Assembly: GCA_017991375.1 (NCBI GenBank)
Contig: JAGOQP010000001.1
Coordinates: 53,149 to 117,148, forward strand
Direction: 5' to 3'
DNA from: Minisyncoccota bacterium
GTDB lineage: Bacteria > Patescibacteriota > Minisyncoccia > UBA6257 > JAGOQP01
DNA length: 64,000 bases
In this document: in pieces, positions 18,794 to 22,167 of the stretch
Numbering within the stretch: position 1 is the stretch's first letter
Layout of the letters: every line of letters starts with the position of its first letter
Position numbers and translations under genes: made by a program
The notes under the pieces: model-generated
Database searches by the model: none
What the model was told of the DNA's origin: nothing
Seen by the model: the letters and a program-made list of their open reading frames with translations, nothing else

Positions 18794-18800
18794 GAAAGCC

Positions 18801-18835
18801 AAAACCCACCCCGACATGCGTCGGGGTGGGTTTTG
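18801..18835 (+). terminator. rho-independent terminator immediately after rpsJ
   Basis: Stem aaacccaccccgac, loop atgc, stem gtcggggtgggtttt. Confidence 0.7.
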
Positions 18836-18855
18836 AATTGTGGATGTGGGTAAAT

Positions 18856-19905
18856 TTAATCACATAACCAATACCAGTACTGGTTTTCAAGGTCTTGGCT
18901 CAGTTGGTAAGCGCGAGCATGAGACAGCGCACCCAAATAGGACTGCAGGGATTGCGAGAGTGTTTTCTCGTCAAGCTGACCCTGGCGATATTGCCTCACC
19001 CTTGCTTTAAGCTTTCGGAATATCCGGCGTTTCGTTTTGCTTCGAAGCAGGCGATGGTGCGGCAATATGACATAGCCCAAGTAGTCGATGCCTTGCCCGA
19101 CATCGCGAATGGAGATCTTCTTGGGGTGCAGGGTGAGTTTGAGTTTGTCGCTAATAAAATTCTGGAAAGGCTCGATGAGTCCTTCCAGATATTTTTCGTC
19201 GGTGGAAATTACCACAAAGTCGTCGGTGTAGCGCGCGTAATGTTTGACCTTCAGATCGTGCTTAACGAATTGGTCGAATTCGTTCATGTAAATGTTGGCA
19301 AACAATTGCGAAGTAAGATTGCCGATTGGCAGGCCGTGACGATCAAAGAGAGTCGTCTGTCCGGCCGAAAAGCTTCTGACAATTTGCTCCATAAGCCACA
19401 TGGTGTCCGGATCGACTATTCGCTTCTTGAGAATTGCCAAAAGAATTTCGTGATCAATCGAATCGAAAAACTTCCGCACGTCGCACTTGAGCGCGAAGCA
19501 CGGCCTCGTATAATTCTGACTCTCTCTACGGATCATGCTTTCGGCGGCCAACACCCCCTTGTGTGTACCCTTATTGATTCGGCACGAAAACGAATTGGCG
19601 ATAAAGGTCTGCTCAAAAATAGGATTGAGAATTCGGAAAACCGCATGGTGCAAAACCCGATCGCGCACCGTGGCCTTGTGAATGTGGCGCACTTTCGGAT
19701 CGCGGATATAGAAACCCTTATACGGCCCGTGGGCGTAACGTTTGGCGAGCAAGTCTCGGTGTAGGGAAAAGAGATTTTGCTCAAGCGAAAACTCGAACGC
19801 CTGAACATCGGCCTTCTTGCCTTTGTCGCTTCGAAATTCCTCCCACGCCGCAACGATATTTTCTAGCGATACGATCCGATTGAATAATTCTTTATAAATC
19901 TTCAT
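18856..19905 (-). CDS. diversity-generating retroelement (DGR) reverse transcriptase
   Basis: RT motifs include YxDD (ARYTDDFVV) and the DGR-diagnostic IGxxxSQ (LPIGNLTSQLFANIYM). The gene is adjacent to avd, TR and VR. The ORF opens at 19959, and the start was chosen at MKIYKELF. Confidence 0.85.
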   Translation of the reverse strand: MKIYKELFNRIVSLENIVAAWEEFRSDKGKKADVQAFEFSLEQNLFSLHRDLLAKRYAHGPYKGFYIRDPKVRHIHKATVRDRVLHHAVFRILNPIFEQTFIANSFSCRINKGTHKGVLAAESMIRRESQNYTRPCFALKCDVRKFFDSIDHEILLAILKKRIVDPDTMWLMEQIVRSFSAGQTTLFDRHGLPIGNLTSQLFANIYMNEFDQFVKHDLKVKHYARYTDDFVVISTDEKYLEGLIEPFQNFISDKLKLTLHPKKISIRDVGQGIDYLGYVILPHHRLLRSKTKRRIFRKLKARVRQYRQGQLDEKTLSQSLQSYLGALSHARAYQLSQDLENQYWYWLCD

Positions 19906-19909
19906 AACC

Positions 19910-20257
19910 ATGAATGACTTCGACATTCCGATCTTCAAGAAAGCGTACGATCTGTTCAAACTCTTTCATGAGTACAGAAAAGTCGTGCCCAAACAAGATC
20001 GATTCACGATCTTCGAACGATGTGAACAACTGATTCTTGACGTGATTGAAAGCATACTTCAGGCGAGCGGCGAACAGAAGCAATCGAAAGGGCCGACATT
20101 GGAACGATGCAGCCTCAAGCTCAATCTGCTGCGAGTCTTTATTCGTCTTATGAAAGACGTTAAAGCCATCGATTCGAAAAAGTACGTAGCGTTGGAAAGT
20201 GTGGTGGACGAAATCGGCCGAATGCTCGGCGGTTGGATTCGATCTACCAAGTCCTGA
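19910..20257 (+). CDS. avd: DGR accessory variability determinant (Avd), four-helix-bundle protein
   Basis: 115 aa. The C-terminal EIGRMLGGWIRS closely matches Bordetella phage Avd EVGRILGSWIAR. It is divergent from the RT, 4 bp away. Confidence 0.8.
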   Translation: MNDFDIPIFKKAYDLFKLFHEYRKVVPKQDRFTIFERCEQLILDVIESILQASGEQKQSKGPTLERCSLKLNLLRVFIRLMKDVKAIDSKKYVALESVVDEIGRMLGGWIRSTKS

Positions 20258-20307
20258 TCAAGAGAAAGGGTATCCGTTTTGCGGATACCCTTTCTTGCTG
20301 TGGAGAG

Positions 20308-20438
20308 ACTTCGAGAGGAAGCCGGACACCGAACCGAAGTTGTCGTTCGGGTTGTCAACGAAGTTCGTGTCGAACTTGACCTTGCCGTCGTTGAAGTTGA
20401 AGTCGGGAGACTTGGAAAAGTCGCCATCGGCCTCCGGA
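20308..20438 (-). repeat. DGR template repeat (TR), minus-strand orientation
   Basis: The reverse complement of 20308..20438 aligns over 131 bp with VR (21677..21807). There are 21 mismatches and every one is an adenine in TR. In the target frame TR contains multiple AAC and AAG codons. Confidence 0.85.
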
Positions 20439-20735
20439 TAATTGCCCCCATCCATCTGTGTCACCAAGCCTTGAACTTTACTTCCCGTTGGAAACGGAAC
20501 TATATGCTCTTGGCTTTGAACTTAATTTGGCAGCATCCGCCTTTCGGCGAAACCCGCACCAGACGAGGACAAGCAGTATCTCCTCAACACAACACGCTCT
20601 TGGAAACCGTAGTCTCCATGACTCTGGTTGTTATCGTTGAAATGATAGAGTTCGGCGACAGCAATCCGTGGACGGCTGTACATTAGCCTATACTCAAGCG
20701 TATTATATCCTAAAGAAGGGGATATGGCCAAATAC

Positions 20736-20764
20736 TTGACATAAAGGCCGATATTTGCTATACT
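20736..20764 (+). promoter_or_regulatory. sigma-70-like promoter upstream of the DGR target gene
   Basis: TTGACA, a 17-nt spacer, then TATACT. On the opposite strand nearby (about 20703-20733) a TATAAT with a weaker -35 points toward TR and the RT. Confidence 0.45.
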
Positions 20765-20915
20765 TAAACGTCAGAATCAGTTCTTTAAAAAAGGCTTATT
20801 TATGAGGTAGCGCATTGGGCGCAAGGCTATTTTTACGCCTATTGCGCTGCCTCATGCAGAGGAAGCCGTTGGCCAGAGCGACTCTGGCAAATCCAAAGAA
20901 AGAAGGAGGATGACG

Positions 20916-21809
20916 ATGTCACAGACATTGATCACCAGCCGAGACCCGAAAGGTCTCCACGCAGTCGGTCTCTTCGAGGCCGTCTACAACAAGTCCAAGC
21001 TCGACGATGCGCGCGCACAGCGGCTCAACGAGCGCGGTGGCGAACTGCAGGACGGGATCGCGAAGCTCATCGCCGAGCTGTCCGTGTCCAACCAGTACGC
21101 CAACGAAGAAGTTCGTTCCAACTACGTGTACCCGAAGGAGTACAAAGGACCCAAGCCGATCGCGGATCAGATCAAGGCTCTTGCCAAGATTCTCGATCTC
21201 GATCCGAGCCAGGCTCTCGAGTTCGCCAAGAACTTGCCTGCACTCCCTGACGGCGCCGAAGGATGGTTCGCCATTCCGTCGGTCGACGCGCTGGCCGCGA
21301 AGCACTTCCCTGAAGTGACCGACCCGGCGGAGATGTACTGCCAGGCGGTCCAGCTCGTTCACGCCAAGATCGCCGCCTCTCGGTCGTTCTACAACTACCG
21401 TGAGGGACAGATCACGCCGGCGCAGTTGCGGGTTCACGCTCGCACGGCGCACGCGCTCGATCTCATCGCCGAAACGCAGAAGGGCGACATCCTGATCGTC
21501 GCCGCCCAGCTCGGCATGCGCCATCGCGGCAAGTCCGTTCGTCGGGCTCGCGAGGTCTTCGTGGCCAACGAGTTCGGTCTCGGAAGTCTCGCGGTCGGTT
21601 CCATCGTTCTGACCCACCCCGAACGGCTCGTCCGCTGGGAGGAACTGGACATGGACTGCTCCGGCGACGAGTTCTCTCCGGAGGCCGATGGCGACTTTTC
21701 CGGGTCTCCCGGCTTCGGCTTCGACGGCGGCGGGGTCGAGTTCGGCGCGTGCTTCGTTGGCCACCCGGACGGCTGCTTCGGTTCGGTGTCCGGCTTCCTC
21801 TCGCAGTAG
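20916..21809 (+). CDS. DGR target protein (variable C-terminus), GC-rich gene of unknown fold
   Basis: An AGGAGG ribosome-binding site lies 6 nt upstream. The C-terminal 43 aa are encoded by VR. The gene has clearly higher GC than the surrounding genes, and there is no obvious signal peptide. Confidence 0.7.
   Translation: MSQTLITSRDPKGLHAVGLFEAVYNKSKLDDARAQRLNERGGELQDGIAKLIAELSVSNQYANEEVRSNYVYPKEYKGPKPIADQIKALAKILDLDPSQALEFAKNLPALPDGAEGWFAIPSVDALAAKHFPEVTDPAEMYCQAVQLVHAKIAASRSFYNYREGQITPAQLRVHARTAHALDLIAETQKGDILIVAAQLGMRHRGKSVRRAREVFVANEFGLGSLAVGSIVLTHPERLVRWEELDMDCSGDEFSPEADGDFSGSPGFGFDGGGVEFGACFVGHPDGCFGSVSGFLSQ
21677..21807 (+). repeat. DGR variable repeat (VR) at the 3' end of the target gene
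   Basis: 131-bp match to TR (reverse complement) with substitutions only where TR has A. The target stop codon (21807-21809) overlaps the VR end. Confidence 0.85.
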
Positions 21810-21821
21810 TTGACCCTTGAT

Positions 21822-21835
21822 CCGCCGATCGGCGG
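21822..21835 (+). promoter_or_regulatory. GC-rich hairpin (ccgcc-gatc-ggcgg) 14 bp downstream of VR
   Basis: Perfect 14-bp palindrome with a 5-bp GC stem and a 4-nt loop. This matches the hairpin/cruciform element found 3' of VRs in characterised DGRs. Confidence 0.5.
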
Positions 21836-21903
21836 ATTGAACTCTTGGGGCTTTTGATCCCTTGAGTTCCCTGCCTGTCAGCAGGCAGGCGTCACAGAAC
21901 ACT

Positions 21904-21940
21904 AGGCCCACCAACATTGGTGGGCCCTTTTCTTTTAACG
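21904..21940 (+). terminator. rho-independent terminator after the DGR target gene
   Basis: ggcccacca-acat-tggtgggcc followed by cttttctttt. Confidence 0.6.
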
Positions 21941-22167
21941 GTATATAAGTAGGTGGTATGTTGCACTATTCTATAATTAGCCGGTGTTAAATCTGTATGG
22001 GCTTGTGTTCTGAGAAGTTGACAATCTAAATTATTTTTGCTAGTCTTATCGAACTATCACATTACAACGCAGGGAGCGATAAATGTGAGACAGTACTACT
22101 ACTGTCTCATTGTGTTGTGTGGTATTTCTTGGCGTGACGTTACGACGTTACGACAAAACTCAAGCAT

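Follow-up and report, generated by a model that had tools for sequence, protein, structure and literature searches.

Positions 18836-21940 of a 64-kb stretch of a Candidatus Pacebacteria chromosome (contig JAGOQP010000001.1; the whole stretch is called the window here) very probably hold an intact diversity-generating retroelement (DGR) of the type carried by bacteria of the Candidate Phyla Radiation (CPR). The element has the order TR-(avd)-RT, that is, template repeat (TR), accessory gene and reverse transcriptase (RT) gene, and lies between the rpsJ terminator and the rplC promoter. A complete DGR, with RT, Avd, TR, variable repeat (VR) and target, had been proposed from the letters alone (the original prediction); every one of these defining components was found and independently tested, and their presence is demonstrated by the analysis. 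The host had been described as CPR-like, and an identical protein, MBP6855428.1, comes from a Candidatus Pacebacteria metagenome-assembled genome (MAG). The accompanying remark that CPR DGRs seldom get close scrutiny is fair.

The element is a member of an already known kind, with the standard CPR DGR architecture. The order TR-(avd)-RT defines architecture B3, found in 90% of CPR DGRs and almost nowhere else (Wu et al., 2018, PMC5758913), and a CPR-restricted clade of DGRs ("DGR clade 2") has targets without recognizable domains (Roux et al., 2021, PMC8144416). In the window, TR and RT gene occupy the minus strand with avd on the plus strand between them, a layout repeated in ~20 related loci. 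The target lies upstream of this core in either orientation, and is inverted in the window, in L029 and in L123/L124 (numbers with L denote related loci). The window element shares gene order, CPR host and a domain-less, non-membrane target with the B3/clade 2 DGRs, with no difference in kind. The first survey of CPR DGRs is said to be that of Paul et al. in 2017. One more intact DGR beside the hundreds catalogued in CPR bacteria is ordinary by itself: the added value lies in a 5′ RNA domain supported by covariation and in a GC-rich target cassette that appears to be exchanged independently.

Repeats and proteins of the element

The TR (20308-20438, minus strand) is 131 nt long and contains 29 adenines, while the VR (21677-21807, plus strand) forms the last 43 codons of the target gene (20916-21809, plus strand). 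A repeat search returns exactly these two segments as the arms of an inverted repeat, 131 nt each and 84% complementary. Aligned without gaps, the TR (read on the minus strand) and the VR differ at 21 positions, each of them an adenine in the TR (17 A>G, 2 A>T, 2 A>C). The 21/29 changed adenines all fall at first or second codon positions of the target, the two repeats are identical at all 102 non-adenine positions, and homology ends sharply at both edges. The probability that 21 randomly placed differences would all land on the 29 adenines is ~4e-18. This independent re-alignment gives the same arms and the same count as the 131-bp pair with adenine-only mismatches reported originally, and demonstrates the adenine-only pattern. 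The TR was also said to be rich in AAC and AAG, and its codons indeed include 6 AAC, 4 AAG and 8 GAC. In all, 18 VR codons are mutable and the window TR encodes ~6.6e15 possible proteins. No further TR or VR copy was found in the 64-kb window.

The last mismatch (TR AAG vs. VR CAG, window position 21804) recurs in nearly every related locus, where Gln is conserved. It is a fixed TR/VR boundary, resembling the IMH*/IMH pair (IMH, initiation of mutagenic homing), and not a product of diversification; the diversified mismatches therefore number 20. The TR and VR share an invariant GC-rich stretch of ~28 nt, CTTCGGTTCGGTGTCCGGCTTCCTCTCG, followed in nearly all loci by a fixed difference: GAAGT|CUCUCC in the TR and GCAGT|AG in the VR. 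At their 3′ ends, VR and TR thus appear to carry an IMH and a non-identical IMH*, respectively.

Variability of the relatives at adenine-coded sites is likewise demonstrated. Among 117 homologs of 75-100% identity, mean column entropy is 2.39 bits for VR codons with a TR adenine, 0.68 for other VR codons and 0.37 for the scaffold. Comparisons within 90%-identity clusters find differences at adenine-coded VR sites in 18.2% of cases, as against 2.9% for scaffold sites and 2.3% for non-adenine VR sites; in some pairs the scaffold differs at 1-3 residues, yet 14-15 of 18-19 adenine-coded sites have changed. The adenine-only pattern is found as well in 20 TR/VR pairs of related loci. On average, 58% of TR adenines are substituted, close to the ~52% of adenines measured per round for the Bordetella RT (bRT). 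The variation in the homologs and in the 20 pairs is indirect evidence for adenine-mutagenic cDNA synthesis and retrohoming.

Substitution totals over 20 TR/VR pairs (the window and L003-L039) are 249 A>G, 67 A>T and 54 A>C, ~18 of the A>C changes being the fixed boundary. The A>G share of ~70% compares with ~35% for bRT in vitro, a difference in which enzyme bias and selection are inseparable here.

The RT is encoded at 18856-19905 on the minus strand. The open reading frame (ORF) of 349 aa carries both motifs originally noted, YTDD and IGNLTSQ, the latter of the DGR-diagnostic form IGxxxSQ; in DGR RTs, [I/V/L]GxxxSQ replaces QGxxxSP (PMC7826257). Nearly all homologs have the same length of 349 aa, and the protein matches Pfam RVT_1 (1e-24). 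Its best match among all PDB sequences is 8ub7_A, which aligns end to end with 172 bits (2e-49), whereas the best group II intron RTs reach ~85 bits. Counted along this alignment, positions agree with the bRT residues that Handa et al. (10.1101/2023.10.23.563531) name, namely K29, F66, R74, I76, D138, I181, G182, Q187, D215, and D216, and because the numbering fits, 8ub7_A is identified as bRT. The window RT keeps all ten residues, including the DD pair and the two that promote adenine mutagenesis, R74 and I181. The clade is assigned here from the motif and the match scores rather than from a phylogeny.

Avd (115 aa; 19910-20257, plus strand) is encoded on the strand opposite to that of TR and RT gene. 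It had been picked out as an Avd homolog next to the RT, and it passes both NCBIfam NF033474 DivGenRetAVD ("DGR protein Avd"; 82.4 bits, curated cutoff 80) and Pfam PF22296 bAvd (64 bits, cutoff 40; 2e-17). The sequence EIGRMLGGWI had been said to match Avd of the Bordetella phage; the alignment with the Bordetella Avd structure (4dwl), to which direct similarity is weak (E 0.69), includes the motif GRxLGxWI. The start codons of the RT gene and avd are 4 nt apart on opposite strands (19905-19910), so each promoter must sit inside the other gene. Read-through of TR RNA transcription, antisense to avd, is a possible route to RT expression. A 289-aa antisense ORF (18895-19764, plus strand) overlaps the RT gene.

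The template RNA

Upstream of the TR, a promoter scan identifies a divergent promoter region (20702-20764, both strands) with boxes that are kept in related loci. The predicted promoter of the TR RNA is TTGGCC-18-TATAAT (20731-20702, minus strand) and that of the target is TTGACA-17-TGnTATACT (20736-20764, plus strand). Just past the TATAAT-like box begins a region of ~260 nt that is conserved up to the TR in 13 loci. Conservation and covariation delimit within it a structured 5′ leader of ~255 nt (20439-20695, minus strand), which comprises two 5′ hairpins, the strand UUGAGGAG (20580-20587), a single-stranded joiner of invariant sequence, AUACUGC (20573-20579), and a three-way domain closed by a helix that ends at the TR's first base.

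Covariation demonstrates the fold. For the training loci, RNAalifold predicts 8 helices; the 61 pairs are formed in 94.5% of cells, compared with 80.6% in shuffles (0/500 reach the observed value) and at most 51% in slid-partner controls, and 43/61 show both-sided (compensatory) changes. A covariance model of the leader core (R1; 199 positions, 43 pairs) recovers the leader in 8/8 held-out loci with a TR (E 1e-13 to 1e-54); every match stops at the first TR base, and elsewhere in 640 kb the model finds nothing convincing. In the held-out set 94.3% of cells are paired and 35/43 pairs are compensatory, counts that weigh somewhat less than they seem to, as the alignment made by the model is fitted to the structure and inflates them.

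The strand UUGAGGAG pairs with CUCCACAG (20298-20305, minus strand), which lies inside a conserved CUCUCC motif 3 nt past the TR, so that the TR is enclosed by a long-range helix. Four of its 8 pairs (helix 5 of the fold) show compensatory changes and 90% of cells are paired; in L026 and L006 the pairing is specific for the cognate strand. Between the stop codon of avd and the 3′ end of the TR lies a 13-bp hairpin with T-runs on both strands (20264-20294). All related loci have a hairpin at this position, with differing sequences and the same structure. Because of the T-runs on both strands, it probably serves as a shared terminator that also ends avd. By position, it would correspond to the "Avd-binding stem-loop" located 3′ of the TR in other DGRs.

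The likeness to the Bordetella BPP-1 DGR (mtd-avd-TR-brt) extends over the full length of the RT, with the residues that contact template, primer and dNTP kept, and includes an Avd homolog, adenine-specific mutagenesis and a target of the C-type lectin (CLec) fold. For that system, Handa et al. (10.1101/2023.10.23.563531) describe two elements: 3′ of the TR an Avd-binding stem-loop, and the "cPRT Stop", in which upstream and downstream sequences form a duplex; they report similar elements in some CPR DGRs, having examined 40 nt upstream of each TR. The TR-enclosing helix of the window resembles this cPRT Stop duplex, and a stem-loop just 3′ of the TR together with a duplex spanning the TR appears to be common to both systems, an equivalence suggested by structure and position. 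The differences are substantial. Unlike in Bordetella, avd is inverted in the window, and a large conserved RNA structure precedes the TR. The 3′ spacer of Bordetella is 140 nt long and includes the primer, the thumb ring and a bRT-binding stem-loop, whereas that of the window has ~50 nt, with CUCUCC and one hairpin. The upstream strand of the closing duplex is located ~140 nt before the TR in the window and directly abuts it in Bordetella, and the order of duplex and stem-loop past the TR is reversed.

Among Rfam families, RT-7 (RF03028) has a first hairpin (CCAGAGU...AGAGUG) that matches leader helices 3-4 in sequence and structure. The match is confined to this hairpin and scores 24.4 bits against a gathering threshold of 116.8, which does not make the leader a member of RT-7; in 12 related loci no Rfam RT motif reaches threshold. 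The RT-10 RNA is the Bordetella spacer, other RT motifs have been guessed to serve DGRs, and RT-7 is uncharacterized, with no function assigned (Weinberg et al., 2017, PMC5737381). The structured leader is absent from the CPR DGR papers in the accessible literature, although an earlier description is possible. Two other roles for the leader were considered and rejected. A small protein (ORF 20522-20731, minus strand) is contradicted by lineage-specific, hairpin-sized insertions of non-triplet length and by the covariation of the helices. A guide to the CTTG-rich flank of the VR is not supported either: duplex energies in 13 loci are no better than with shuffled flanks.

By homology to the Bordetella system, we infer where transcription would start and end and how cDNA synthesis, priming and homing would proceed. 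The promoter at ~20702-20731 (minus strand) would drive an RNA of ~430 nt from ~20695 to ~20262, made up of the 255-nt folded leader, the 131-nt TR, CUCUCC and the hairpin. Pairing of UUGAGGAG with the CUCUCC motif just 3′ of the TR would hold the template as a closed loop. A complex of RT and Avd would bind this RNA and copy the TR into cDNA, misincorporating opposite adenines, and the cDNA would be substituted for the VR in the target's 3′ end, recoding 18 codons of a C-type-lectin-fold surface with ~1e15-1e16 variants. The joiner AUACUGC, opposite the TR end GAAGU in an imperfect template:primer duplex, might supply the priming nucleotide, purely as a working hypothesis. If cDNA synthesis does start 5′ of the point where joiner and GAAGU meet, the fixed AAG/CAG difference would be explained, because the last TR adenine would never be transferred.

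A tentative reading, possible and in our judgment somewhat short of an even chance, joins the two unusual features of the family: the 5′ leader takes over the role of the Bordetella 3′ spacer in priming and in wrapping the RT, and the target cassette is an independently exchangeable module that a resident RT/TR can adopt, phages being one vector. The family bears on how avd-inverted DGRs, almost without a 3′ spacer, prime and bound cDNA synthesis, and the leader and its long-range helix offer concrete mutations for testing.

The target gene and its cassette

The start of the target ORF at 20916, as originally proposed, is the better one, given its Shine-Dalgarno spacing and the 297 aa of most homologs. 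The C-terminus, which holds the VR, is a CLec domain, in which the VR is displayed. The N-terminal ~190 residues are helical and match no solved structure. A Foldseek search of the target against the PDB gives no significant match, nor does a profile search against PDB sequences and Pfam; a first structure prediction, from a shallow alignment, had a predicted local distance difference test (pLDDT) of 47 and was unusable. No Pfam family matches, including FGE-sulfatase and DUF1566, and there is no sequence similarity to the CLec-fold variable proteins Mtd (1yu0) and TvpA (2y3c). No transmembrane segment or recognizable domain was found in the target; a binding protein, cytoplasmic or phage-associated, is our best guess. 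The family, with ~1,600 clusters at 50% identity, bears on the role of the domain-less, apparently non-membrane targets of CPR bacteria.

The composition of the gene sets it apart from its host. The target has 63% GC and a GC content at third codon positions (GC3) of 0.81, in a genome of 44% GC whose neighboring ribosomal genes have GC3 of 0.32-0.47. It is GC-rich in 30/30 related loci (L001-L035), on average 13.7 points above the host locus and mostly with GC3 of 0.65-0.94, while the adjacent RT gene lies ~4 points below the GC of the host locus. The high GC is not the trace of a one-off recent acquisition, since it is found in all 30 loci regardless of host GC, nor of adenine avoidance alone, since adenine and thymine are both low at third positions (A3 and T3) and the bias is not adenine-specific. 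A 332-aa antisense ORF over the target (20919-21917, minus strand) is a by-product of the high GC.

The cassette has been conserved in a way that the RT has not. The target scaffold is 75-94% identical across CPR classes, a higher identity than that of the RT. At the DNA level, identity to other CPR classes is 83-91% over ~20710-21870, with promoter, 5′ untranslated region (UTR) and 3′ flank included, against 64-70% for the RT module. At 4-fold sites of the target scaffold, the window and L006, L001, L004, and L013 are 0.80-0.90 identical, where composition alone would give ~0.3; for the RTs of the same comparison the value is 0.20-0.26, which is saturation. Third positions hold most of the differences within the cassette, and similarity is just as high in the flanks. 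Read most simply, these values suggest that the target cassette was recently exchanged horizontally, apart from the RT/TR module. After such an exchange the resident TR would overwrite the incoming VR. No description of the independent exchange of a GC-rich target cassette was found in the accessible literature, where an earlier one is nevertheless possible.

The cassette also includes conserved flanks. The 5′ UTR (20772-20915, plus strand), known from an alignment of 30 loci, combines two hairpins, the first of them long, with the Shine-Dalgarno sequence AAGGAGG; the two hairpins precede every target gene, match nothing in Rfam and could be a regulatory RNA. Judged by eye in the 30 loci, compensatory changes preserve the pairing of the long hairpin (ATGAGGTAGCGCA...TGCGCTGCCTCAT) where distant loci differ in sequence. 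The VR is followed by a region of CTTG(A) repeats (21810-21868, plus strand; copies at 21816, 21844, 21853, and 21861). In 28 loci, CTTG occurs 3.4 times per 80 nt past the stop codon compared with 0.31 in controls, an 11-fold enrichment. Every target gene has 3-6 of these repeats at a spacing of ~8 nt, including orphans with no RT within 6 kb, and the repeats are not mentioned in the accessible CPR DGR papers. They are followed by a conserved small GC hairpin (21870-21889) and the target terminator (21905-21926); this segment (21870-21926, plus strand), located by terminator scan and flank alignment, forms the right edge of the cassette.

In several related loci, parts of the element are missing. 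In L022 (1340-2323), an A-poor VR-like tail is joined directly to a TR-type end, consisting of CCGAAGT and a hairpin, and continues into avd; leader and TR are missing. This looks like a recombination between VR and TR that killed the element. The L022 target is the sole copy with an ordinary GC3 (0.46). L001 (CP064989.1, a complete 1.09-Mb Moraniibacteria genome) and 13 other loci have full-length GC-rich targets with IMH-like ends and CTTG repeats intact, and no RT, Avd or TR within 6 kb; such targets may be served in trans, or orphaned. In L014, L031, L034, L036, and L040, the MAG contigs end inside the target gene, at residues 44-229, before the VR. These five ends fit assembly breaks caused by near-identical cassettes shared among the genomes of one community.

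Genomic setting, phage connection and alternative readings

In the window, the spacer between rpsJ and rplC measures 3374 nt (18794-22167), compared with -4 to 485 nt in 62/67 related loci and 762-2483 nt in the other five. Homology to a relative without a DGR, L043, is lost past the rpsJ stop. A 17-bp hairpin (18799-18836), found by terminator scan between the stop codons of rpsJ (18793) and the RT gene (18856), probably acts as a bidirectional terminator and marks the inserted cassette's left edge. No DGR occupies the rpsJ-rplC spacer in any of 80 scanned loci (0/80), and a metagenome scan with the rplC product, ribosomal protein L3, returned no close relative (best 70% identity), leaving no precise empty site for comparison. 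Ribosomal genes have been found associated with five CPR DGRs (Wu et al., 2018, PMC5758913).

A promoter of rplC itself (TTGACA-17-TGCTAGTCT, 22018-22046) is conserved in L043, and rpsJ and rplC are hence separate transcription units in this lineage. The idea that the cassette breaks the S10 operon was rejected: rpsJ has its own terminator and rplC its own promoter, the latter also in L043. The spacer sometimes holds unrelated genes, namely a 393-aa ORF with hydrophobic stretches in L054 (3721-5561) and ORFs of 233 and 437 aa in L114 (900-3385). In these genomes the spacer may repeatedly receive insertions.

For the cassette as a whole, the nearest sibling is found on IMG/VR contigs: its RT is 89%, its Avd 97% and its target 89% identical, in the same inverted arrangement. 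On these contigs (L123/L124; UViG_3300024999_000712, UViG_3300025012_001675), the cassette is flanked on one side by a C5 DNA methyltransferase gene and on the other by genes for portal, scaffold and an SU10-type major capsid protein, the capsid gene matching PF17236 (3e-46) and the portal gene being portal-like. L123/L124 look like a CPR phage or prophage carrying a near-identical DGR cassette, and a phage is one plausible vector. "Essentially no information" was available on the association of CPR DGRs with phages (Wu et al., 2018, PMC5758913), and the accessible CPR DGR papers do not mention a sibling cassette beside phage head genes. A large conserved GC-rich target family, exchanged across classes apart from the RT and found near phage head genes, points to a strongly selected mobile binding module.

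These neighbors raise the question of whether the cassette is itself phage-derived, with the target a virion or receptor-binding protein and the chromosomal copy a remnant or a domesticated module. The portal-like, capsid and methyltransferase genes beside the nearest whole-cassette relative speak for such an origin, as do the composition of the cassette, unlike that of the host, and the signs of horizontal exchange in the target cassette. Those phage genes are, however, absent from ~40 other loci and from the 64-kb window, no match exists among 50,697 deposited phage genomes, the target has no PHROG match, and the CPR clade is almost entirely cellular (Roux et al., 2021, PMC8144416). We therefore consider a phage origin rather doubtful; it concerns origin and role only and is compatible with the element being a DGR. 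Far less credence is due to the view that the window copy is a relic, in which the parts remain, diversification has ceased and the TR/VR differences are frozen history. Decay is known in the family: L022 has lost leader and TR in the recombination described above, RT genes are split in several relatives, neither RT nor Avd lies within 6 kb of about half the target homologs, and in some 90%-identity clusters the VRs are identical despite scaffold differences. Nevertheless, the RT, Avd and target of the window copy are full-length, the catalytic and mutagenesis residues, promoters and terminators are intact, and its leader has the top score with the RNA model among all loci (186 bits), albeit as a training sequence. 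Drift after inactivation would also erode the identity of the repeats at non-adenine positions, which is complete (102/102). A relic is thus very improbable.

The remaining alternative, that the element is not a DGR at all, is already refuted by the tests run and has next to no probability left. It would assign the RT to group II introns, retrons or defence systems, and take the repeat for an ordinary diverged duplication or for the result of adenine deamination, which the A>G excess (17/21 changes) might suggest. The top NCBIfam model for the RT is indeed that of group II intron RTs/maturases (TIGR04416), in a library that contains no DGR-RT model, but the score is 153.5 bits against a cutoff of 300, and the retron and defence models are likewise far below theirs (Retron St85, 66 vs. 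235; Drt3a, 87 vs. 200; Drt2, 76 vs. 390). The original prediction had named a grouping with group II intron or retron RTs as the outcome that would speak against it; the bRT score is double that of any group II RT, and Rfam detects neither intron nor retron RNA in the window. A>T and A>C changes occur beside A>G, the changes keep to codon positions 1 and 2, non-adenine positions are untouched, and Avd adjoins the RT. The identification as an intact CPR-type DGR stands, with several observations that weigh against it or against parts of its mechanism. Activity is judged from public homologs, which limits what can be said of current activity in the window copy. Three TR AAG codons can mutate to TAG stops, making the template less "safe" than the canonical AAY design. 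For the RT, the promoter scan turned up nothing promoter-like from the hairpin to the start of the gene. In two AU-rich loci, L017 and L039, pairing in the long-range helix is weak or ambiguous. Finally, the GC hairpin directly after the VR (ATCCGCCGATCGGCGGAT, 21820-21837, plus strand), which interrupts the CTTG region, is not conserved at that position in relatives, whose conserved small GC hairpin lies ~60 nt downstream instead; GC-rich inverted repeats downstream of the IMH are known in 34% of DGRs only (Wu et al., 2018, PMC5758913).

The N-terminal part of the target also occurs by itself. In L038 (5962-6282; Bradyrhizobium manausense), its first ~60 residues (LITSRDPKGL...AQxLNERG) are found as a stand-alone protein of ~93-106 aa for which there is no Pfam family. 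Read from their sequences, the neighbors resemble a replication initiator, ParE, AlpA and a type IV secretion system (T4SS) coupling protein. Several CPR loci join this N-terminal module to different C-termini.

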